Assembly: GCA_015523565.1 (NCBI GenBank)
Contig: WAKA01000089.1
Span: 1-12,719 of the forward strand
Direction: 5' to 3'
Length of the DNA stretch: 12,719 bases
Source: Candidatus Heimdallarchaeota archaeon
GTDB lineage: Archaea > Asgardarchaeota > Heimdallarchaeia > Heimdallarchaeales > Kariarchaeaceae
Within the stretch, counting starts at the first letter, position 1. Every line of letters begins with the position of its first letter. Below, in pieces: positions 1 through 12,572 of this stretch. The position numbers were made by a program, and so were the translations under genes. The notes beneath the pieces are model-generated. The model had not been told where the DNA came from. It did not search any database and worked only from the letters and a program-made list of their open reading frames with translations.

Positions 1-2633
1 AATTTGTAGCGTTAATTATTTTACTGTTACTGACTACAGTATCTAGTGCTACTTTGAGCTACACTTATGTTAATCAAAGTATGGACAGTAATAATTTAAG
101 TGACCAGCGATTTTCAGTTTCAAGAGAAACAAAAGAAAAGAGATCCTCTGTACAGATTTCAGCAAGTAAAGTTTTTAATACAACTCTTGAGATTGGAGGA
201 GGTCCGACTACAGAAATTGCGAATAACGTCACCAGAGATCAAGCCCAAGCAAATGGATGGCCAGGAACGGGAACAGTTGATGATCCAATCATAATTTCAG
301 GTTATTTATTTGAAAATTTTGGAGGCACAACTGCAATTTTAATTTTTAGAACCTCGCTTTACATAGTACTTGAAAATAATATAATAGATGTGGCAAATGG
401 AGTGACAACAAATTTTGGGATTTACTCCAGCTTTGCATCCAATGTAAGAATTAGGAACAATGTAATAAGACTCAATTACACAAATACACAAGCAGGCATT
501 TATATGGAAAAAATCAATGCAAGCAACATTGTAATTGAAGACAATGAAATAGTGGTTTCATCTTCGGCCATAAGTTTTTGGGAATTAAATGGTTTCGAAA
601 TCAGGAACAATTACATTGAATCATCAGGTGGCATTAGTGTCAGCAATGCATATGTTGCCCAAGATAATTCTACGAATTATATTTCTGGCAACGAAATGTA
701 CACAAAAGGCAATTCAATTAGCATCTATAATGATTGGAATAATTTTGACAATCGAACAACAATTGTAGAAAACAATCAACTGGAATCAAAAAATGGCAAG
801 GGAATTTATTTCCAATTCAACTCTAACAATGAGATCAAAAATAATACCATTTCAGTATATAGAACCCATAATTCAATACATCTATCGAAATCATACAATA
901 ACATTGTTACCGATAATAATTTATTTGGAGGAGGGATGAGTTTTCCGTTTCCAAGTGATGAAACAAAATTACAGGATATTGTTGAGAATAATTTCCTAAA
1001 TGGGATTGCAATTCTATATCTTGTTTATGGTAGTGGTTTTGTTGGAGGTCCTTTTAGCCAAGCATTTGTCTATTATTCAAATGATGTGACAATGACAATG
1101 GAATCGCGGACATGGACTGATGCAGTTCAAATAGCTTATAGTTTTGACGTGATGATTGAAGACAGTATTTTTATGGAAGTTGACCAAGCCATTGATATAA
1201 GAGATTCAGGCAATATAATGATCAGAAACAATACCTTTGACCATGTATACTCAGCAATTGACTGTTCAAATTGTTCAGAAGTCAATATTGTTTCAAATAT
1301 GGTTGATTTTTCGGATTATGGCTTTAATCTTCACAAGGGAACAGATGTAAGTATAGAGAATAATTCATTTTTCTCATTAGATAGCAATGCAATTGATGCA
1401 TATGACATTGATAATTTACAGATAATGAATAATTTCATAGATTCGATAGCTGATGATGATGGGATTTATATTTCAGATATAATAAATTCACAAGTCTCAA
1501 ACAATATAATCATGAATGTAAGAAATGGGAACATGTTTGGCGCATACAATATAAGCCATACAGAAATAAGCAACAATCAGTTCCGAGATTCAGAATATAA
1601 TGGGATTGCCATTAGTTCAAGTTCAAACACAACGATAGACAAGAACTTTTTTGTAGGAATGGGTTCAAATGGGATTAATTTTTATGACGTAAAAGACAGT
1701 GAAATAAGCAATAATTTCATTGACAAGATACAATATAGTGGATTAAGTTTATCTGATAGCGAAGATCTCAGCATTCATGATAACTTTTTGGGAGAAATCG
1801 AAGGAAATGCCATTTACAGTTATTCCAATGGATTACTGGGCAACATAAGCATTGCACATAATATCTTTTATAAGATTAGACATTATATTCTTCAATTGTA
1901 TGGGGACGGTGGATATAATTTTACTGAAAATGATGTTTATACAAATGGAATAATACGCGATTATATGTTGATCGATACTCCAATACTGATTTTTGTAAAT
2001 CATAATTATTGGTCTCACTTTAGTCAACCCGATTCTGATAACGACGGAATTGTAGACCAGATTTACAATGAAACAAGCATACAAGATTTTTATCCATCAA
2101 CACATCCACTAAATCAATTTCCATCTGAAGTAACAATTAATTCTAATGATATAGTTTATGAAGTGGGAATGACAGGTAATTATATCCATTGGCAGATTAA
2201 TGGGTTAGAAAAAGGAGTCTATAGTATTTACGATCCTTGGGGCTTATTGATTGAAGATCAATTATTTTATAATGGATCTATCTCATTAAACGTTGACGGG
2301 TTGGATATAGGAAGATATGTATTTACATTAGTGATTTTGGGACTTTTCAATGATTTTGTCGTTAATAGTGTTGTTGTGGAAGTTATAGACCACCCAACCT
2401 CCACTACAACCACAACACCTACAGAAACGATAACGGTAACGCAAACACATACAGTCCAGCATAGTATTACAATTACAACCAATGCTACCCTGACCAATTC
2501 CACATCTTCAAGTTCCACATCACAAGCAGGACTCCCATTCTTATATTATATGACCATTAGTCTCTCAATCGTTTTCATAATAAGGGTAATCAATCATAGG
2601 AAGAAAAATAAAAAAGTAAATTGGAAGACATAA
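1..2633 (+). CDS. Secreted, C-terminally anchored parallel beta-helix (NosD/CASH/PbH1-like) surface glycoprotein, 5'-partial
   Basis: The frame is open from the window edge: nt 3-53 translate as FVALIILLLLTTVSSAT (signal-peptide h-region), so the TTG at 54 is unlikely to be the start. It has an archaeal-type N-terminal motif (AQANGWPGTGTVDDPIII), many Asn/Ile-rich 'I.NN.I' beta-helix repeats and a NosD-like cap (NYWSHFSQPDSDNDGIVD). These are followed by an Ig-like module (DIVYEVGMTGNYIHW...VDGLDIGRYVFTL), a Thr/Ser-rich linker, a TM helix and a basic tail (RKKNKK). Stop TAA at 2631-2633. Confidence 0.85.
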   Translation, partial: FVALIILLLLTTVSSATLSYTYVNQSMDSNNLSDQRFSVSRETKEKRSSVQISASKVFNTTLEIGGGPTTEIANNVTRDQAQANGWPGTGTVDDPIIISGYLFENFGGTTAILIFRTSLYIVLENNIIDVANGVTTNFGIYSSFASNVRIRNNVIRLNYTNTQAGIYMEKINASNIVIEDNEIVVSSSAISFWELNGFEIRNNYIESSGGISVSNAYVAQDNSTNYISGNEMYTKGNSISIYNDWNNFDNRTTIVENNQLESKNGKGIYFQFNSNNEIKNNTISVYRTHNSIHLSKSYNNIVTDNNLFGGGMSFPFPSDETKLQDIVENNFLNGIAILYLVYGSGFVGGPFSQAFVYYSNDVTMTMESRTWTDAVQIAYSFDVMIEDSIFMEVDQAIDIRDSGNIMIRNNTFDHVYSAIDCSNCSEVNIVSNMVDFSDYGFNLHKGTDVSIENNSFFSLDSNAIDAYDIDNLQIMNNFIDSIADDDGIYISDIINSQVSNNIIMNVRNGNMFGAYNISHTEISNNQFRDSEYNGIAISSSSNTTIDKNFFVGMGSNGINFYDVKDSEISNNFIDKIQYSGLSLSDSEDLSIHDNFLGEIEGNAIYSYSNGLLGNISIAHNIFYKIRHYILQLYGDGGYNFTENDVYTNGIIRDYMLIDTPILIFVNHNYWSHFSQPDSDNDGIVDQIYNETSIQDFYPSTHPLNQFPSEVTINSNDIVYEVGMTGNYIHWQINGLEKGVYSIYDPWGLLIEDQLFYNGSISLNVDGLDIGRYVFTLVILGLFNDFVVNSVVVEVIDHPTSTTTTTPTETITVTQTHTVQHSITITTNATLTNSTSSSSTSQAGLPFLYYMTISLSIVFIIRVINHRKKNKKVNWKT

Positions 2634-2661: not shown

Positions 2662-3846
2662 CTAACGTATTTTCAAAAAAGTGAATAACAATATCACATA
2701 CAAGGTAATGGAAAATATTAACAGAGATTCACTTAATGAAAAGAAACTGTATACAAAACCGACATACAAAGTGGAAAGTGAACGCCCCAAAGAAACAAAG
2801 ACCCCCAATGCTCCAAGAGCCGCCCCCCTTTTTTCGAAAGGGGCAAGTTTTGTTGCACCCCTGTTTACCGCGGTGTAGGCAGTAAGCATCCCTGCGAAGA
2901 AGATTGTTTGCACACCTATCAAAAAGAAAAAGTTTGAAACAAATGTGCTTGAGGCAATTGCCATTGAAACAATAGTCAGACTTAGAAAAACCACATTTTG
3001 AAGGTTAAGATGGTCTGAAATTGAACCTAAATATGGTTTGAAAAAAATCAGGATCAGAGTTGAGATCAATGAAATTTCGGCAACAGTTCCTTTAGAATAT
3101 CCATAAGATACAATAAGTGCTGGAAAAAAGACGATAAATCCAAATGAGGAAAAGGAGATAATGATTTGCAAAAGGTAGACATTTCTTAGAGATTTCATTT
3201 TGATCAGTTGGATCATTATGACAACCATATTCTTGAATGAATCCCAAAAATGCGAAAAATAATTGGTCGATAGATTTTCATGGTTTTTCGGCAAGGATTC
3301 AGGAAGGATGAATATTGCCAAGACCGTAAATAATGAACCAATCAATCCAACAATGAGAAAGACATTGTTCAATGTCAACTGCAATTGATCCAACAAATAT
3401 GAGGCCAGAATAGAGGCACTGATAACCCCAATATCCCCAGCTTGGAATATTTTTCCATTTGATTTTCCATAAGAGGCGAGGTTCACATCGCCAATATAGG
3501 AAAATGTGGCAGGCCAAAAGCTACTCATTCCAATTGCAAAACAGATAACACTAAAAAGAGCTCCAATCCAATTTTTGGAGTAAGAAAGAAGGAAAATGGA
3601 AATAGTATAGAGGGAAATCCCCATCACAATGATAGGTTTTCTTCCTGTAACTTGAGAGAGGTTTCCCAAAGGAATCCTCAAAGGAATCTGAAGAAAATTC
3701 ATTGACGATACAAGGACTGAGAGAATAATTGAAGAAAGCAATAGGTCTTTTTCAAAAAAAATGACAAGATATGTCCTATAAACGAAAGCCAAGAAATTTC
3801 CGAACAAAGTGACAATTCCCAATGATAGAATTGGCTGATGTTTCAC
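2662..3846 (-). CDS. MFS transporter (about 12 TM, DHA1/MFS_1-like, substrate unknown)
   Basis: MFS motif-A-like segments (PLGNLSQVTGRKPII; LGSISDHLNLQN), a 'PFEKRGAALG' loop and about 12 hydrophobic helices. The ORF track starts at GTG 3921, inside narK. GTG at 3846 (MKHQPILSLG) is preferred because it removes the overlap and lies 20 nt after a TATA-like box. Confidence 0.85.
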   Translation of the reverse strand: MKHQPILSLGIVTLFGNFLAFVYRTYLVIFFEKDLLLSSIILSVLVSSMNFLQIPLRIPLGNLSQVTGRKPIIVMGISLYTISIFLLSYSKNWIGALFSVICFAIGMSSFWPATFSYIGDVNLASYGKSNGKIFQAGDIGVISASILASYLLDQLQLTLNNVFLIVGLIGSLFTVLAIFILPESLPKNHENLSTNYFSHFWDSFKNMVVIMIQLIKMKSLRNVYLLQIIISFSSFGFIVFFPALIVSYGYSKGTVAEISLISTLILIFFKPYLGSISDHLNLQNVVFLSLTIVSMAIASSTFVSNFFFLIGVQTIFFAGMLTAYTAVNRGATKLAPFEKRGAALGALGVFVSLGRSLSTLYVGFVYSFFSLSESLLIFSITLYVILLFTFLKIR

Positions 3847-3866
3847 AATGATTGATTTACAGGATG

Positions 3867-3875
3867 AATTAAAAG
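3867..3875 (-). promoter_or_regulatory. Candidate archaeal TATA box (CTTTTAATT) for a leaderless MFS transcript
   Basis: Sits 20 nt upstream of GTG 3846. The identical 9-mer is 22 nt upstream of the DOMON ATG. Confidence 0.5.
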
Positions 3876-3901
3876 AATTGGAAATAGGTAATTTTGTGTG
3901 A

Positions 3902-5221
3902 TCAGTGATTGTTGACTGCACGATGGAGTAACCAAGTCAATAAGAAACAAATTATTCCGAGAATTGTAAAGACAACATATCCTCTTGCATATCCAACAGT
4001 ACCCATTTGATCAACAAAGAAACCAAGGATTGGAGGAATGACAAAACCACCAAATGCGCCAAGTCCGCCAACCCAGCCAGAGGTTCCACCAACCGCATCA
4101 GGTACTGCTTTCGGAACAAGCTTGAAAACGGCTGCATTCATAGCTCCCATTCCCAAAGCCAGTATAATCATTCCAACAATTGCCAATGAATAAGAAGAGG
4201 TATCAAAGATCAGAATAAGGGATCCAAGAATAAGGATGGCAATACCACCATACAATGTTTTGTAACCACCGATCTTGTCAGATAATTGACCAGTATAGAC
4301 TCTCATAAGGGAACCAACAACAATGAATATCCCATTCAAAATAAGAGCCATCCCAAGTTTGACATCATCAAAAAGATTAATTGGACTTGGACTGAAGAGT
4401 TCGACCCAATAAGTCTTGAACCAAGTTCCAAGTGCGATGAAACCCCCGAATGAGGTGAAGTACAACCCAACAAGAGCCCAGGTTTCCCAATGGCGACCAG
4501 ATGCCTTGAGGCTGTCAACCAATTTATATTTCGGGAAAAGCTCCTGACCATGCTTCCTTGCTATTTCCTCCGCCTTGGATTTTTCAACGCCTTGGTCTTT
4601 CAATTGGAAGGACCATGCATCTTTACCCATATAATAATAGATAACGGTTCCTATTATGAGAAGAACCAACCAAAGCAGATATGATTTGGCTACACCCATA
4701 GTGGCAAGGGATATTGCCATGATAAATGAGAAAATGCCTGGGGCAAGATTTCCAATTCCTGCATATTTTCCAAGAGCACTTCCCTGTTCAGATTGCTTGA
4801 ACCAATAGGATACCTGACTTATTCCAACAGAGAATGTTGCAATTCCACATCCTGCCAAGAAACCAAAGAGAAGCAATAGAGGATAGGATGAATTGGTCAG
4901 TGAATTGTTTTCAAGACTGAGACCAAGGAAATAGAGACCAATCAATCCCACAATTGAAAGCAATAATAGGATCAAAATTGGCTTTCTTCCGCCGACTTCA
5001 TCCGTCCATGCAGAAAATGGGATTCTCAGCAAGGATCCAGAAAGGTTTGGCATTGCAACCAATAGACCTGCAAGGAATCCAGAGAGTTGCAGAGCCGCCT
5101 TGAACTCAGGAGCTGTTGCACCCATGGCGACAACAGCCGCAAAGCCGATGAAAAAGCCGATTGTAGCACCCCAAAGTCCTTCTTGGGGAGTTCCACTTAA
5201 TTTATAGTTTTCTTCTGCCAT
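3902..5221 (-). CDS. narK: Nitrate/nitrite porter (NNP family, MFS)
   Basis: Conserved Arg-bearing segments GSLLRIP and GSLMRV. Nitrate-signature regions (FSVGISQVSYWF..QGSALGKYAGIGN; AVFKLVP..VGGTSGWVGGLGAFGGF) and 'FTSFGGFIAL'. Directly downstream of narI, with RBS AAGGTGA at 5228-5234. Confidence 0.93.
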   Translation of the reverse strand: MAEENYKLSGTPQEGLWGATIGFFIGFAAVVAMGATAPEFKAALQLSGFLAGLLVAMPNLSGSLLRIPFSAWTDEVGGRKPILILLLLSIVGLIGLYFLGLSLENNSLTNSSYPLLLLFGFLAGCGIATFSVGISQVSYWFKQSEQGSALGKYAGIGNLAPGIFSFIMAISLATMGVAKSYLLWLVLLIIGTVIYYYMGKDAWSFQLKDQGVEKSKAEEIARKHGQELFPKYKLVDSLKASGRHWETWALVGLYFTSFGGFIALGTWFKTYWVELFSPSPINLFDDVKLGMALILNGIFIVVGSLMRVYTGQLSDKIGGYKTLYGGIAILILGSLILIFDTSSYSLAIVGMIILALGMGAMNAAVFKLVPKAVPDAVGGTSGWVGGLGAFGGFVIPPILGFFVDQMGTVGYARGYVVFTILGIICFLLTWLLHRAVNNH

Positions 5222-5258: not shown

Positions 5259-5942
5259 TCAGGATTTTGATTTGTTCCAAATGACGATCTGAGGGGATCG
5301 CCATGCATACTTAATTGGGTAAAAGATGAGATGACCCAATCTAGTGAATGGGATAAGGGCGATTAGTACCATACCATTGACAAAATGAAGGTGCAGGAAC
5401 CAATCATTTCCTGCAAAACCAGCAACAGCGGTATACTGTGGATTGAGTGTGACAATGGATCGAAGCCATGGAACCATGGTTGTAATGAACCATGAAGATC
5501 CGAATCGGTATTTGATCGCGATGGTAAGCCCAGTAGAAATTTGGGTAGTCAAATCACCAAGCACAATCCAGTCCAAGAGAGTTGTCGTAGCTCGAACCCT
5601 TGGATTTGTGATGCGGCGATAAATCAGGATGAGCATGCCGATAATGGAAAAAGCGGCAAGCAACCAGCCAGTGTATTCCCATATTGGTCGATTACTGTCA
5701 GTGACAAGTAAATTGAATAGGTCAGGGAATAAAATGCCTAAAATGTGCATTGTCAGTATCATGATTATTGAATAATGCCAGAAGTATGACCCGACCAGCA
5801 ATGAGTTTTTATTGCCTAAAAACTCAGAGGATTGGCTGGAGAAGGTATACTTGTCATAGCTGATTCGATATATCCACCCTATGATTGCCAAGGTAATTGC
5901 AATATAAGGGAATATCACATAAAATAGAAAATCTACTGTCAT
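5259..5942 (-). CDS. narI: Respiratory nitrate reductase/NXR gamma subunit, di-heme b membrane anchor (227 aa)
   Basis: Family motifs YVIFPYIAIT and TFSSQSSEFL. Four candidate heme-ligand His in FWHYSIIMILTMHILG and LHFVNGMVLIALIPFTRLGH, and C-terminal YAWRSPQIV. Start re-placed to ATG 5942, which has AGGAGG (5950-5955) 7 nt upstream and a TAATG overlap with the narJ stop. Confidence 0.95.
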   Translation of the reverse strand: MTVDFLFYVIFPYIAITLAIIGWIYRISYDKYTFSSQSSEFLGNKNSLLVGSYFWHYSIIMILTMHILGILFPDLFNLLVTDSNRPIWEYTGWLLAAFSIIGMLILIYRRITNPRVRATTTLLDWIVLGDLTTQISTGLTIAIKYRFGSSWFITTMVPWLRSIVTLNPQYTAVAGFAGNDWFLHLHFVNGMVLIALIPFTRLGHLIFYPIKYAWRSPQIVIWNKSKS

Positions 5943-6604
5943 TATTGTTCCTCCTTTTTCTTTCCTTTTCTGATCCATTGATCGATCTTGTTCTCTTTCT
6001 GGATGGGTGAGTCATGGACTGGGAGAACAAGGACATCATTGGAAATCTTTTCTTCACCTGTCAGGAAATTTAGCAGGGAAGAAATAAGCGAGTAATAGGC
6101 CAGTCCAGCACCAACAGAAAGGGGGCGATCTTCAGGTCTCACTTTTGTCCAGACAATACGTCTCAGGCAGGGGATCACAGCATCGTCGATCAATTCCCTA
6201 GCCAGTTCAGACTCTGGATTGTCAGCAATGAATTTTAAGATAACCCCCAAATGATCCGGAAGTTCACCAATTGGTTCAAAATTGAATTCACGGTATCTTT
6301 TTATCAATTCCACCAAAAATATGCTTCGCAAATAGCTTTCACCAAACAAATGGTAGCCTACATATGGAGCAATATGAAAATTCAGTTCAAAGATTTCGGT
6401 GTAGAATGACTGAAGTTCATCAAGGTCTTTGTCACGGATGAATTCCAGAAATGTTGAGAATTCCTCTTTTGAAGACCCTTCCAAATTGCCCATGCATCTT
6501 TCAGCCACTGCCAAATAATCCTGTTGTGGATAAAGGAAAAGAGTGTGAAATTGGTCAAGTACAGAAGACTTCTTAATTTTTGGCTGGGCTGAAATTGTCA
6601 ACAC
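5942..6604 (-). CDS. narJ: Nitrate reductase molybdenum-cofactor assembly chaperone (delta subunit, 220 aa)
   Basis: Motifs YTEIFEL..APYVGYHLFGESYLR..LVEL...Y and GELPDHLGVILKF. Start re-placed to GTG 6604, 1 nt after the narH stop, with AGGAGGT (6611-6617) 6 nt upstream. Confidence 0.93.
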   Translation of the reverse strand: MLTISAQPKIKKSSVLDQFHTLFLYPQQDYLAVAERCMGNLEGSSKEEFSTFLEFIRDKDLDELQSFYTEIFELNFHIAPYVGYHLFGESYLRSIFLVELIKRYREFNFEPIGELPDHLGVILKFIADNPESELARELIDDAVIPCLRRIVWTKVRPEDRPLSVGAGLAYYSLISSLLNFLTGEEKISNDVLVLPVHDSPIQKENKIDQWIRKGKKKEEQ

Positions 6605-6605
6605 A

Positions 6606-8117
6606 TTACCACCTCCTTGAAGGTTCAGATTTCTTTCCAAACCCACCAGAAGTTTTTCTGACAAATGGGTCAATGACTGTTTCAATTTGGACTTCACGTG
6701 AAATTGGTGGGATAACAAATCTTTCTTCCATAGTTGGCAAGCTTGTCAATTGGAATATTGCTTCTGCTTCCTCGGCATTTGTTTTCCCAACACGGAAGGA
6801 TTCTTCCACCTCTTCAGGGGTAATGTCCTTGAGTTCTTGTGATCTCTTATAGATACGAACAGCCATCAGTTTCCGGTAAACTTCCATTACCAAATCCTCA
6901 TTTCCAGCACCGAAAAGTGAAGCCATGTATTTGATTGGCACACGTGCCTTTTCAATATCACTCATCTGTGGTTTGGAACTAAGATCGTCCGTAACCTGAT
7001 CATAGACACCATTCCGTTTTTGACCAATGATTGGAAGCAAGGGGGGAACATAAAACAGCATTGGCAATGTCCGATACTCTGCATGCAACGGAAGGGCTAT
7101 TTTCCATTGCTTGACAAACTTATAGACAGGTGAGTTCTGTGCTGCCTCAATCATGCCATAAGAAAGATTGTTTTTCTTTGCAGCTTCAATCACCTCTGGG
7201 TCAAAGGGATCCATTATCAGTTCGTTTCTCATCATTTCCACAAGATTTGCATCATCCACTGCGGCTATTTCAGGAACCTTATCTGCATCATACAACAATA
7301 CACCCAAGTAACGAATTCTTCCGACACAGGAATGGAAGCAGGCAGGTGCCTGACCAGTTTCTAATCTTGGATAACAAAGCAGGCATTTTTCTGATTTGCC
7401 AGTACTCCAATTGTAATAGACTTTCTTGTAAGGACAACCTGAAATGCACATCCTCCAACCTTTACAATTGTCTTGGTTTATGAGGACAATTCCATCCTCA
7501 CCTCTCTTATAGATTGCACCTTGAGGGCAAGCCGCGAGACAGGTGGGGTTGACGCAATGATTACAAATTCTTGGTAGGTAAAAGAAGACAAGTCTTTCAA
7601 GTTCATTCAGTTGTTCTTTTTCAAGGTCGGAAAGTCCCTCTAGATTGATATCGTTTTTGGCATAGATTTCAGAACCACCAAGGTCATCATCCCATGAGGG
7701 ACCCGATTTTATATCGATATATTCACCAGTCACTCTTGAGATAGGTTTTGCCACAGGTTGATCCGATGAGATTCCTGCCTTGAACAAGTGTTCGTAGTCA
7801 TAGGTCCATGGTTCATAGTAATCGTCCATTGTTGGCAGGTAAGGGTTTCCAAAAATGTTCTTGCCAAGGGATGCAAATTTTCCATTGACTTTCAGGATGA
7901 CCTTGTCACCTTTCTTGACCCATCCGCCACCGTATTTTTCTTGATCTTCCCATTTCTTTGGGAATCCAGTTCCAGGTTTTGTTTCCACATTATTGAACCA
8001 TGCATATTCAACACCTTTCCTATCAGTCCAGATGTTTTTGCATGAAATGCTGCATGTGTGGCATCCAATGCATTTGTCTAAGTGAAAAACCATTGCAATT
8101 TGTGCTCTTATGTCCAT
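6606..8117 (-). CDS. narH: Nitrate reductase/nitrite oxidoreductase beta (Fe-S) subunit (503 aa)
   Basis: Four Cys groups: CIGCHTCSISC, CNHCVNPTCLAAC, CKGWRMCISGC (Trp replacing Cys, the [3Fe-4S] pattern) and CLLC...CFHSC. Family N-terminus MDIRAQIAMVFHLDKC, with GGTGA (8123-8127) 5 nt upstream of ATG 8117. ATG 8123 is an alternative start. Confidence 0.97.
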   Translation of the reverse strand: MDIRAQIAMVFHLDKCIGCHTCSISCKNIWTDRKGVEYAWFNNVETKPGTGFPKKWEDQEKYGGGWVKKGDKVILKVNGKFASLGKNIFGNPYLPTMDDYYEPWTYDYEHLFKAGISSDQPVAKPISRVTGEYIDIKSGPSWDDDLGGSEIYAKNDINLEGLSDLEKEQLNELERLVFFYLPRICNHCVNPTCLAACPQGAIYKRGEDGIVLINQDNCKGWRMCISGCPYKKVYYNWSTGKSEKCLLCYPRLETGQAPACFHSCVGRIRYLGVLLYDADKVPEIAAVDDANLVEMMRNELIMDPFDPEVIEAAKKNNLSYGMIEAAQNSPVYKFVKQWKIALPLHAEYRTLPMLFYVPPLLPIIGQKRNGVYDQVTDDLSSKPQMSDIEKARVPIKYMASLFGAGNEDLVMEVYRKLMAVRIYKRSQELKDITPEEVEESFRVGKTNAEEAEAIFQLTSLPTMEERFVIPPISREVQIETVIDPFVRKTSGGFGKKSEPSRRW

Positions 8118-8122
8118 TATCA

Positions 8123-11100
8123 TCACCACTCCAGTTTCTTTAATTTCTTCACAAGGACGAAGGTATCCCTATTGACACCCACAGGTCCCCAATAATTGAA
8201 GCCATAAGTCCATTGTGCATAGCCCCCTGCAAGCAAGAGAGGGTTCAATTTAATACGTGTCAAACTATTATGTCCACCGCCTCTTCGTCCACGTTCATTG
8301 GATTTCGGTACTGAAACAGTACGTTCGGGGGAATGGTAGATCCAACAGGTGCCACGTGGAATACGGGAACTGACAATGATACGGGTGACAACAACACCAT
8401 TGTCATTGATCACCTCAACCCAATCATTGTCCTCAACGCCAATCTTTTTGGCATCATCAGGATGAATCCAAGCGGGATAGCAGCCACGACTGAGTTCTTG
8501 CATCCTCAGGTTGTCACCATAGGTAGAGTGAATGTGCCATTTACCATGTGGTGTAATATAGTTGAGCAGGACACTTTGATTTTTATCTGTACTGTCAACA
8601 TCACCAGTGACAGATGGATCGAGTTTTGGCTTGAAGGTTGCAAACTGTTCACCAAAATCAATATACAATGGGTGATCAAGATAGAGGTGCTGCCTGCCTG
8701 TCAGGGTTCTCCATGGCACAAGCTTGTCAATGTTTTGTGAATAACCTGCATATGCCCTTCCTTCATTGACAATACCAGACCAGAAGGGAGAAGTCAGAAC
8801 CCTGCGAGGTTGTTTTTTGAGATCTTCAAATGTGTATCTGACACCCCTGTTCTTTTCAGCAAGCTCTGCGAGGTTGGTCAATCCCGTCTTCTTCTCAAGA
8901 TCCAAAAATGCACGGTAAGCAAGTTCACCATTTGTTTCAGGTGCAAGAGCCAATATTAGATTGATTGCATCCAAGGCATCCTCAAGTCTTGGATAGCGGT
9001 TACCACCCCATTCAATAGCCCTCAAATGCTTTGGATCAGGAGATCGTGTGGTAGGTTGACTTGCCAAGTAATCATAAATGTCCTCGATTGGGAATTGGAT
9101 ACCATGAGCTTTGAGCCCATTAGCCCTTGCCTTTGGTCCATAGGAGATAAATCTCTTGTATAAATCAACATAATTTCTCTCCGTTATGGCAAGCTTAAAG
9201 CCTGTTTTGCCAGGGATATATTCAACCTCATCATATTTCCAATCCCTGATTTCAGGTTGCATCATTTCATCAGGGGAATCATGGGCAAGCGGCTTAGTAA
9301 CAATATCTTTGACAGGTTCAGGCAGGTATTCTTCTGCAAGCTCACTTACTTTTTTCGCAAACGATTTGAATATGTCCCAATCGGAACGGGCTTCCCAAGC
9401 TGGAGGGGTTGCTTGACCCAATGGGTGAACAAATGAATGCATATCTGTAGTATTGAGGTCATTCTTTTCATACCACATTGCAGTGGGCAAGACGATGTCT
9501 GAATAAAGTGCAGAAGTATCCATCCTGAAATTGATGTCAACAACAAGATCCATTTTTCCAGCAGGAGGATCACGGTATACAACATCCTGCAATTTATCCT
9601 TGGCTTTCTCTTCCTTGATGAGATTATCCTTTGTACCAAGATAATGTCTCAAAAAGAATTCATGCCCTTTTGCACTTGACATGAGTGCATTCCCCCTCCA
9701 AATGAAGAAGACACGAGGCCAGTTTTCTGGTGCATCTGGATCCTCAACTGAAAGCTTGAGCTCTCCCTTATTGATTTTCTCAGCCACAAATTTCTTGATA
9801 TCATCATCGGAAGTGTATCCTGCCTCGTTTGCCTCTTGAATAATTTGGAGTGGGCTCTTGTTGAATTGAGGATAGAATGGCATCCAACCATTCCTGACTG
9901 CACGGGCAATGTGATCAGCCACATGACCCTTTGCATATTTAGCATCTCCAGGAACTGACGCATAATCCGTGAATTCACCCTCATACCTGAACTGATCTGA
10001 ATGAATATAGTGCCAAATTGGAGTTTGTTGCACACGAGGTGGTGCAACCCAGTCTGTAGCCATTGCAACAGACAACCAAGATGTCATAAGTGTCAGTTTC
10101 TCCTGACCAACATAGTGATTAAGACCACCACCGTTTCTACCCACACAACCTGTAAGAATCAAGGCAGTGATGGGACCACGATACATGAGGCTATTGTAAT
10201 ACCAATGATTAACCCCTGCACCAGTGATAACCATGGATCTGCCTTCTGTCAATTCTGCATTAGTAGCAAATTCACGTGCAAACTTAACAACTGTGTCCTT
10301 TCCAATTCCTGTGAATTTTTCTTGCCAAGCAGGGGTATAAGCGATGTCCGCGTCGTCATATGATGAGGGATATTCTCCATCCAATCCTCTAGGTACACCA
10401 AAGTGACCAAACAAGAGATCCATTGAAGTGGTAACGTAAGCAGTCCCATTCTCTGTCTCAACTTTCTTGACAGGCACACCACGGACAATGGTTTTCTTTT
10501 CACCATATTCAGGGAATTCGACCATCAAGACTTCATCATGATCACCCAAAAGAGATAGTTGTGGATCAATGTCCTTCCCATTGACATCTTTCAGATTCAA
10601 GTTCCATTTACCCCTATCCTCCTTGGCATGCCTGAAACCCAATGTTCCAATGGGCAATACGATTTTCTTCTCTTTTTCATCAAATACAACAAGCTTCCAA
10701 TCCCCGTTTTCAGCATCCTTGAATTCTTTCAATCGATTTGCCCTAAAGAACTGCCCAGGAGAGTAATTGTTTCCTTTCTTGACCAATTCAACCAAGAAAG
10801 GTGAATCACTGTATTTCTTCAAGTATTCTACAAAGTAAGGCACTTGTCGGTCGACGAAATATTCCTTGAGAATTACATGGTTTACAGCACACCACATTGC
10901 AGAATCCGTTCCTGCCTTTATTGGGATCCACCAATCAGAGAACTTAGCGGCCATGCTAAAGTCAGGTGCGATACAAACAAACTTTGCGCCGACATATTTT
11001 GCCTCTGAAATGAAGTGAACATCAGGAGTCCTTGTCATGCTAAGATTTGATCCCATTGAGACAATGTATCTTGCATTATACCAATCAGCACTTTCTGCAA

Positions 11101-11764
11101 CATCAGTTTGTTCACCCCAAGTTTCGGGGAATGAATTTGGCAGGTCACAATACCAATCATAGAAACTTAGGTTAACCCCTCCCAACAATTGCAGGAATCT
11201 ACTTCCACCACCATAGGAGAGATAGCTCATGGCTGGAATGGGTGAAAATCCAAAAATCCTGTCAGGACCATATTTTTTAATGGTGTAGATCAAGGACACA
11301 GCAATTATCTCAAGGGCTTCATCCCAGGATATCCTTTTGAAACCGCCCATCCCCCTTGCCTGCTGATAGGATTTCCGATTGTTTTCGTTTTCCACAATTG
11401 AAGCCCATGCGTCAATCAAGTCCTTATGTTGCTTCTTTGCATTTCGCCAAAGGTTAAACAAAGTTTTCCTGATGTAAGGATATTTTACACGCAATGGACT
11501 GTAGACATACCAAGATGCGGAAATACCTCTTTGACAACCTCTTGGTTCATAAGGTGGAAGATTGTCTTCCAATAGGGGATAATCGGTTGCCTGCAATTCC
11601 CATGTGATTATTCCATCTTTCACAAAGATATTCCACGAACAGCCACCAGTACAATTTACCCCATGGGTGGATCTGATGACTTTGTCATATTGCCACCTGT
11701 TTCTGTAGAATTCTTCCCATTGTCTGCTCTTTGGATTTAATAGGTCAGTTATCCAGTTTCCCAT
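8123..11764 (-). CDS. narG: Type II DMSO-reductase-family Mo-bisPGD alpha subunit (nitrate reductase NarG / Nitrobacter-type NxrA), cytoplasmic, 1213 aa
   Basis: FS0 ligands H34-C38-C42-C77 ([10 protein letters not shown]...PRGC) and Mo-ligand Asp region [24 protein letters not shown]. Further motifs [39 protein letters not shown] and [12 protein letters not shown]. No twin-arginine signal. RBS GAGGTGA at 11769-11775. Confidence 0.97.
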
Positions 11765-11773
11765 AATTTCACC

Positions 11774-12514
11774 TCAATAGTATTTACTGTTTTTCCATAC
11801 CACAAAAGCGATGAAAGCAATAAATGCCCAGAAAAGTATAGGGGCAATTGGACTTTCATCTTGTGATGCCTGTCCTGATTCACCCAATTGAACTGTGGAT
11901 TGGGCAGGTGTCTTGCTCGAATCGGCAATCTCAACAGTTAGGAGATTGGAACGCCATGTGTGATAAGTAAGTTCATCTGAACTTTCATGTGCTGCGAAAA
12001 AGAAACCATATGTATTTCCAACCTCCCAATTATGATCTTGCCCTGCTGTATCGGATGATTGAAGTGGAAAAATGATTTCAATTGTGGTTATCCCATTTTC
12101 TTCCTTTCCTGCACCTTGAATTGTGATTTGATCAGCATCTTCATTCGGCGCAACATTTCCGGTTGAGAAATAATCCTTTGAAATTAATTTCCCGTCCTTT
12201 ACTGAAGAAATGATCATATCCGCCCCAGCCATTCCTTTTCCAGGTTCGTTCATTCCAAAACCAATCCAGCCAGAAAGTTGACCAGTCATAGCCAACGCAA
12301 TGTGAGTATTGTTGTGACCCCATGAGACAGATAAAAACTTGGAACCATCACTAGCTGCCGTAACATCAAATGTTGTAGGATATTCATTCTCGCTGACAGT
12401 ACCATCCAACACAAGATTAGAGAAATCCGAATAGTAAAGTGTTGTATCTGCGGCTTTCACAACCTGAAAGTGAAAAAGCAGAATTAACAATAAAACATAT
12501 AGTTTTATTCGCAT
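11774..12514 (-). CDS. Exported, C-terminally membrane-anchored DOMON-domain protein (putative Met/His heme b)
   Basis: Signal peptide (MRIKLYVLLLILLFHFQVVKA/A) and DOMON core motif GWIGFGMNEPGKGMAGADMII (Met95). Also DYFSTG..P..D, TTIEIIFPL and terminal-strand YH (His185). Ser/Gln linker, TM helix at about aa 223-240, short basic tail. The stop codon overlaps the narG RBS (9-nt gap). Confidence 0.88.
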   Translation of the reverse strand: MRIKLYVLLLILLFHFQVVKAADTTLYYSDFSNLVLDGTVSENEYPTTFDVTAASDGSKFLSVSWGHNNTHIALAMTGQLSGWIGFGMNEPGKGMAGADMIISSVKDGKLISKDYFSTGNVAPNEDADQITIQGAGKEENGITTIEIIFPLQSSDTAGQDHNWEVGNTYGFFFAAHESSDELTYHTWRSNLLTVEIADSSKTPAQSTVQLGESGQASQDESPIAPILFWAFIAFIAFVVWKNSKYY

Positions 12515-12572
12515 GAATTACTATACATCCCTCAGTAATTAAAAGTATTTGAGACCGAAAGGAAAGTAATTC
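12515..12572. promoter_or_regulatory. Candidate operator: AATTACT-N11-AGTAATT inverted repeat plus extra half-sites
   Basis: AATTACT at 12516-12522, AGTAATT at 12534-12540, AGTATTT at 12544-12550 and AGTAATTC at 12565-12572. Confidence 0.35.
12537..12545 (-). promoter_or_regulatory. Candidate archaeal TATA box (CTTTTAATT) for the DOMON-narGHJIK operon
   Basis: Lies 22 nt upstream of ATG 12514, a spacing that fits a leaderless or near-leaderless archaeal transcript. The same 9-mer precedes the MFS gene. Confidence 0.5.

Follow-up and report, generated by a model that had tools for sequence, protein, structure and literature searches.

A DOMON protein gene at the head of an archaeal nar operon: a candidate outer-face heme b partner of NarI

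Inward-facing NarGHI nitrate reductase is the textbook three-subunit enzyme, and the locus described here raises the question of what a further protein, predicted to face the outside of the cell and encoded by the first gene of a nar operon, could contribute to it. The locus is located in a stretch of DNA (the window) of 12,719 nt from Candidatus Heimdallarchaeota archaeon, which is an entire 12.7-kb contig (C89; WAKA01000089.1) belonging to an assembly of 3.57 Mb (90% completeness), referred to below as G000. Seven tightly packed minus-strand genes are present in the window, encoding, in order of transcription, a protein with a DOMON domain, NarG, NarH, NarJ, NarI, a NarK-type transporter of the major facilitator superfamily (MFS) and a second MFS protein (Table 1). 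The reading to which we lean, if only slightly, is that the DOMON protein is an outer-face redox partner of NarI and, in functional terms, the counterpart of the NarC protein of Thermus.

The first line of evidence is the way in which the DOMON gene is joined to narG. Its TGA stop codon is part of the narG Shine-Dalgarno sequence, being located within TATTGAGGTGAAATTATG (also read as TGAGGTGAAATTATG), and the ATG of narG is at 11764. A preliminary description of this DNA had reported a distance of 9 nt between the end of the gene and narG, a TGA embedded in the ribosome-binding site, and a first position in a cytoplasmic-type narGHJIK operon. The coordinates of the junction were confirmed, and so was the type of operon: NarG lacks a signal for twin-arginine translocation (Tat), narHJIK follow downstream, and this arrangement is conserved within the family to which the window belongs. 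The same description had placed the gene after the only promoter-like region; its first position stands, but the word "only" does not, as the contig ends 205 nt upstream of the DOMON gene and this stretch is all the upstream DNA available. The TATA-like box in this stretch is a candidate for the archaeal promoter of the operon. The DNA is AT-rich, and an additional promoter may be present inside the DOMON gene.

The second line of evidence is synteny, for which a survey had been proposed in the preliminary description. When 400 genomes of the phylum were searched, narG was found in nine, all of which belong to one class, and five of the nine belong to the family of the window, f1 (G000, G001 and G002 of one genus, and G006 and G007 of two other genera). 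All five have an orthologue of the DOMON gene directly upstream of narG and on the same strand, with identities to the proteins of the window of 43-61% for DOMON and 65-85% for NarG. The two genes are spaced by 9-14 nt, or show a short overlap if the longest open reading frame (ORF) is taken. The junction in which the stop codon is part of the Shine-Dalgarno sequence is present in each of them (TGAGGTG in three, TGAGGAA in G007 and TAAGGAG in G006), as is an A/T-rich TATA-like box 26-30 nt before the DOMON start. Because this box and the junction are kept while the genes upstream of DOMON differ among these genomes, and are often on the opposite strand, we consider DOMON to be the conserved first gene of the unit. 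It should be noted that DOMON proteins are numerous in this lineage, and a common surface-protein gene might have come to lie next to a nar operon by chance. Given that order, orientation, spacing and junction motif are kept in five out of five genomes of three genera, next to differing upstream neighbours, this explanation is hardly credible.

In a maximum-likelihood tree, the nar-linked DOMON proteins are found in one moderately supported clade (85/83), which also holds genus-level duplicates, namely the product of a gene located after narK in G001 and a paralogue encoded on contig C96 of G000. The second DOMON gene of G001 (L001, 10952-11734) is 59% identical to that of the window, and narGHJIK is flanked by two DOMON genes in that genome. 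At the corresponding site the window has its second MFS gene, which is not conserved at this place in G001. The spacing in G001 is matched by the public metagenome-assembled genome D6732 (labelled Euryarchaeota/Methanobacteriota), in which two DOMON genes are six locus tags apart. A metagenome scan with the family alignment yielded only three distant relatives.

What kind of protein does the first gene encode? A domain search gave a match to PF03351 with 60.6 bits (E 2e-16; Pfam cut-off 32.7), and this DOMON family was matched by 16 of 16 relatives, five of which also matched, weakly, the family of the cytochrome domain of cellobiose dehydrogenase (CDH), PF16010. No match to PF09459 (EB_dh) at E 0.01 or better was obtained for the query or the 16 relatives. 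The translation, its hydropathy and the helices of the AlphaFold2 (AF2) model agree with the signal peptide and C-terminal transmembrane anchor that the preliminary description had predicted. The N-terminus consists of a hydrophobic stretch in which VKA is followed by AD, cleavage probably occurring between the two, and AF2 places a helix at residues 2-14; a C-terminal hydrophobic helix extends from about residue 221 to 243 (223-242 in the model) and is followed by the short basic tail KNSKYY. With a signal at the N-terminus and a helix with a basic tail at the C-terminus, both ends are therefore predicted to be cytoplasmic and the DOMON domain to be outside, making the protein an outward-facing, membrane-tethered one. 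On visual inspection, conservation of the anchor does not exceed that of the remaining sequence, and a specific helix contact is not claimed. The protein contains no Cys at all, and hence no CxxCH motif, and has one N-glycosylation sequon (Asn68).

The AF2 model has a mean predicted local distance difference test (pLDDT) score of 84.8 and is confident for residues 22-200, which are predicted to form a DOMON-type beta-sandwich; this part is connected to the terminal helix by a linker of about 25 residues with a pLDDT below 50 (low confidence at 213-221). When the model was used as a query in Foldseek, the cytochrome domain of CDH ranked first, and EbdC (2IVF_C) and NxrC (7B04_C) were also among the best structural matches. 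Sequence searches of the PDB with family profiles did not reach any DOMON structure.

Two residues stand out as candidate axial ligands of a heme b. Met95 is present in 16 of 16 sequences of an alignment of close and middle-distance family members (A1) and is at least 90% conserved among 78 diverse relatives drawn from a library of 1.8 billion proteins (A2); His185 is present in 15 of the 16 and is invariant among the 78. In an alignment of residues 22-198 of the model to residues 1-175 of the CDH cytochrome chain, Met95 and His185 are 73 and 163 positions from the aligned start, and the CDH ligands, which we take to be Met65 and His163, are at 64 and 162; the title of a structure entry ("M65H mutant") supports Met65 as a ligand in CDH. 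The equivalence of the ligands rests on these offsets and on conservation. Most of what the preliminary description had said of these residues holds, i.e., the codon of Met95 (the motif being GKGMAGAD), the codon of His185, and the proposal that both are at the ligand positions of DOMON cytochromes. Only the placing of His185 in the last strand has to be corrected, since in the AF2 model it is in the loop before that strand (strands 168-175 and 192-196). Judged by its sequence, then, the protein keeps the Met/His pair of heme b DOMON cytochromes, and it would be expected to bind heme b. An alternative is that it is not a cytochrome but a CBM9-like surface module with a structural or sugar-binding function, or a factor in the assembly of the membrane subunit. 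We consider this improbable: Met and His are kept as a pair throughout the family, heme proteins head the list of structural matches, five members weakly match the CDH cytochrome profile, and relatives are repeatedly encoded in redox neighbourhoods or occur in redox fusions.

These neighbourhoods are of several kinds. On contig C157 of G000 (L034, 6783-11851), tatC, a gene for a 424-aa protein, a gene for a 394-aa anchored DOMON protein in which Met and His are kept, a gene for a Tat-signal 4Fe-4S protein resembling NrfC and a gene for an NrfD-type protein are found in a row, and this set is a candidate for encoding a quinol:DOMON oxidoreductase; the pair of DOMON and FeS genes is also present in G001, G003, G004, G007, G008 and G049, which represent two families. 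The C96 paralogue mentioned above (244 aa, 54% identity; L035, 2488-4965) is encoded directly upstream of genes for an electron-transfer flavoprotein-quinone oxidoreductase of the FixC/FixX type, and in G003, where narG was not found, a related DOMON gene adjoins fixCX-like genes in divergent orientation (L020, 6079-8699). Fusions point in the same direction: among the library relatives, P0026 is a fusion of DOMON with a 4Fe-4S domain, and P0104 combines two DOMON domains with a cytochrome b561 of the eukaryotic type. A fusion of DOMON with NarI was not found in a Pfam scan of ten long relatives, and a dedicated search for longer fused DOMON forms found none. Because the DOMON family is repeatedly tied to membrane redox modules, a role in electron transfer is favoured. 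Another library relative, P0090, combines two DOMON domains with DUF2427, and very large DOMON-repeat proteins exist as well (P0014, P0015 and P0027, with 2531 aa and 12 matched stretches, 2571 aa and 11, and 4632 aa and 19, respectively), which might be long heme b chains.

As to the enzyme itself, NarG starts about 26 residues later than its E. coli homologue and has no twin-arginine (RR) motif, the four histidines that serve as heme ligands in E. coli NarI (56, 66, 187 and 205) all align with histidines of the NarI of the window, and narK follows narI, as it does in relatives. Because of the missing Tat motif, the kept NarI histidines and the presence of narK, the product of this operon is, as read from its genes, an inward-facing respiratory nitrate reductase, NarGHJI. 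The same topology, with inward alpha and beta subunits, NarI and an outer cytochrome gene heading the cluster, is shared by Nitrobacter-type nitrite oxidoreductase (PMC7694296), and G000 has three genes for heme-copper oxidase subunit I. The enzyme might thus run in reverse, with the DOMON protein taking up electrons from NarI and passing them to a heme-copper oxidase, as is thought for the NarC-like cytochrome c of Nitrobacter. This is very improbable in our view, as NarG scores as a narG equivalog, nothing points to a nitrite-oxidising lifestyle, and published reconstructions take these genes as nitrate respiration. Moreover, the nearest NarG relatives outside f1 (65-68% identity) are those of Chloroflexota (Anaerolineae, Dehalococcoidia and SAR202), which are mostly annotated as nitrate reductase alpha subunit, and in a few cases as "nitrate reductase / nitrite oxidoreductase". 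The GC content at third codon positions of narGHJI (0.39-0.44) is higher than that of the DOMON gene (0.31) and the flanks; the value for the DOMON gene is close to that of native DOMON genes (0.30). Because of these values, together with the Chloroflexota proteins being the nearest outside relatives of NarG, it could be envisaged that a native DOMON gene was recruited to an acquired nar operon, for which the evidence is only suggestive.

In the mechanism that we propose, the first gene of the operon would give rise to a DOMON heme b cytochrome that is tethered to the membrane, is located on the outer face of the cell and is produced together with the inward-facing NarGHJI. By analogy with Thermus, the DOMON protein would contact NarI, and its heme would exchange electrons with the distal heme of NarI, near the outer surface, thereby linking the chain from quinol through NarI and NarH to NarG with other redox proteins on the outer face. 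Considering heme potentials, transfer from quinol to NarI to a DOMON heme and on to oxidases would be downhill, and entry from DOMON to NarI would be slightly uphill at the first step. On such general redox grounds, exit of electrons through DOMON to oxidases or other acceptors is somewhat likelier than their entry.

Several observations weigh against a DOMON protein dedicated to NarI. Two sister families, f4 (G014 and G018) and f7 (G076 and G077), have narGHJI(K) operons without an upstream DOMON gene; Nar works without such a gene in these families, and DOMON is a lineage-specific accessory. Because of these operons, it has to be seen as a family-specific addition and not as a general part of this Nar clade. 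The presence of paralogues beside other redox modules, and of a DOMON gene in G003, where narG was not found, indicates that the family is not Nar-specific. The low-confidence linker suggests, as far as the model goes, a mobile, swinging carrier at least as well as it does a rigid subunit. Heme b would also have to reach a Sec-exported archaeal protein. Finally, the preliminary description had envisaged a wire across the membrane "without any cytochrome c maturation", and this part of the proposal is weakened: a 622-aa open frame of G000 (C20:11721-12242, minus strand) matches the cytochrome c assembly family PF01578 (CcsA-family) with 49.5 bits, and because of this match, maturation of c-type cytochromes cannot be assumed to be absent. 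In the same genome, which is 90% complete, a search for a bc-type cytochrome b (PF00033) gave no match. Separately, it was observed that in f4 conserved ORFs of 108 and 160 aa precede the nar operon in place of DOMON (L030, 3129-4007; L031, 3513-4392).

Several of these points would be accommodated by a heme b carrier whose regulation is shared with nitrate respiration and whose partner is not NarI but, for example, a heme-copper oxidase, the Tat-FeS/NrfD quinol module or an outer-face enzyme handling nitrite. A tethered carrier that has to move would be well served by a flexible linker, paralogues are accompanied by NrfCD-type and FixCX genes, one relative is a DOMON+FeS fusion, the literature ties DOMON genes to cox clusters, and the Nar of the sister families needs no DOMON. 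However, coupling to narG through a stop codon within the Shine-Dalgarno sequence, conserved in five genomes, is the usual mark of products that are needed together. In addition, nirK, the downstream denitrification partner, was not found in G000, and DOMON matches were absent from its three oxidase contigs. We therefore regard a different partner as possible, though on the unlikely side, and retain the proposal that the DOMON protein serves NarI.

Table 1. Features of the window and the evidence on which their assignment is based
Feature	Positions	Strand	Evidence
DOMON protein gene (246 aa): signal peptide, DOMON beta-sandwich, flexible linker, C-terminal anchor (predicted)	11774..12514	-	PF03351, AF2, Foldseek, orthologues
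TATA-like box TTTTAATTA, ~26 nt upstream of the DOMON start	12536..12544	-	sequence reading
Signal peptide, residues 1-21, predicted cleavage after VKA	12452..12514	-	translation, hydropathy peak at residues 1-23, model helix 2-14
Met95 codon, candidate axial heme b ligand (GKGMAGAD)	12230..12232	-	conservation, offset compared with CDH Met65
His185 codon, candidate axial heme b ligand (TYHTW)	11960..11962	-	conservation, offset compared with CDH His163
C-terminal transmembrane anchor, residues 223-242, then tail KNSKYY (predicted)	11789..11848	-	hydropathy >1.6 (windows starting at 220-225), model helix
Junction: DOMON stop TGA (11776-11774) inside the narG GAGGTGA Shine-Dalgarno sequence; 9-nt gap	11765..11776	-	sequence reading
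narG, catalytic subunit, without Tat signal (inward-facing type)	8123..11764	-	TIGR01580, 1486 bits (cut-off 1084)
narH, iron-sulfur subunit	6606..8129	-	TIGR01660, 628 bits, above cut-off
narJ, chaperone	5942..6718	-	PF02613, above Pfam cut-off; TIGR00684, 46 bits, below cut-off
narI, di-heme b membrane subunit, proposed contact of the DOMON protein	5259..5978	-	PF02665, 182 bits; TIGR00351, 124 bits, above cut-off
narK-type nitrate/nitrite MFS transporter gene	3902..5221	-	MFS_1; TIGR00886, 156 bits, below subfamily cut-off
Second MFS transporter gene, 20-nt overlap with the narK end	2662..3921	-	PF07690

Some further properties of the window and its host should be mentioned. The true start of narJ is probably downstream of the listed TTG. 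An adaptation of NarI to the DOMON protein was considered as a source of evidence and was rejected: the f1-specific indels in outer loops were not unusual once E. coli NarI was added, the column of E. coli Lys86 is unreliable, and NarI is fast-diverging in all pairs, so that the identity of 26-36% between f1 and f4/f7 NarI is unspecific. Converging on the end of the operon is a plus-strand gene (3..2633) for an 876-aa right-handed beta-helix/NosD-like repeat protein, which does not qualify as a NosD equivalog and is probably located at the cell surface. Concerning the host, G000 contains a full-length actin gene (456 bits) and a fused gene for oxidase subunits I and III (823 aa), which point to an Asgard archaeon, and the host is probably a member of the Kariarchaeaceae; profilin, which was looked for in addition as an Asgard marker, was not found. 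One relative of NarG, with 67% identity to that of the window, is named Heimdallarchaeota LC_2. According to a preprint, narGHJ has among Asgard archaea been reported only in Hodarchaeales and Kariarchaeaceae, and nothing is said there on DOMON in connection with nar.

The DOMON genes of G000 allow a broader and more tentative view, which we consider rather doubtful at present. Asgard archaea of the Kariarchaeaceae type might use tethered DOMON heme b proteins as general carriers on the outer face, doing the job that cytochrome c does in bacteria; in such a network the DOMON/Tat-FeS/NrfD quinol oxidase would feed the carriers, NarI with its own DOMON protein would be a second, nitrate-linked branch point, and these carriers would serve the oxidases as well. 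If such a network exists, eukaryotic trans-membrane redox systems with DOMON domains (CYBDOM type) might trace back to it. The respiratory chains of Heimdall-group Asgard archaea are used for reconstructing the metabolism of the archaeal ancestor of eukaryotes, and the carriers between quinol oxidation and the terminal enzymes are poorly known in this group. As for nitrate reductase itself, the only well-studied four-subunit form known to us is that of Thermus, with a cytochrome c. If our proposal is true, a DOMON heme b gene heading the nar operon would be a second, independent four-subunit solution and would suggest that the outer heme of NarI can be tapped from outside the membrane. The DOMON protein is small and free of Cys and has two clear candidate ligands, which makes the idea directly testable.

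How does the proposed arrangement compare with known systems? The literature that we searched contained no paper linking DOMON to narG, nor any description of NarI combined with a separate DOMON cytochrome on the outer face. What is already known is, on the one hand, an extra outer cytochrome on an inward-facing Nar, as in Thermus, and, on the other, DOMON-like heme b subunits on outward-facing relatives, as in EbdC and NxrC. The parallel with Thermus, which the preliminary description had drawn, holds. NarC, whose gene heads narCGHJIKT, is an anchored periplasmic cytochrome for which two-hybrid assays showed binding to NarI; it is required for maturation of the enzyme and is thought to pass electrons onward to outer-face acceptors or reductases when complex III is repressed (PMC7694296). 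Like NarC, the DOMON protein heads an inward-facing nar operon and is predicted to be anchored on the outer face. However, NarC is a di-heme c-type cytochrome, whereas the DOMON protein is free of Cys and has Met and His as the candidate ligands of a single heme b; neither sequence nor fold relates the two proteins, and an interaction with NarI is known for the Thermus protein only. A closer precedent in terms of lineage is that, in Heimdallarchaeia, cox clusters (coxABC) adjoin "putatively electron-transferring DOMON" proteins (bioRxiv 10.1101/2024.07.04.601786). These share both the lineage and the idea of a carrier with the protein described here, and the report covers cox neighbourhoods only.

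EbdC and the NxrC of anammox bacteria resemble the DOMON protein in being single heme b DOMON-like subunits of NarGH-related enzymes. These enzymes are located wholly on the outer side, and their gamma subunit docks on the beta subunit in the place of NarI, whereas in the window NarGH lacks a Tat signal, NarI is kept, and NarGH and the DOMON protein are predicted to be on opposite sides of the membrane. The marks of a type II gamma subunit (a match to PF09459, location on the same side as Tat-exported alpha and beta subunits, and replacement of NarI) are thus not those of this protein. The candidate for the distal ligand differs as well, being His instead of the residue found in EbdC, which we take to be Lys. 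The cytochrome domain of CDH, AIR12 and CYBDOM are similar to the DOMON protein in having a Met/His pair at matching offsets, and in CDH the domain is likewise flexibly tethered. Unlike these, the protein of the window is archaeal, carries no fused flavin dehydrogenase or cytochrome b561, has a C-terminal anchor of its own and is encoded in a nar operon.

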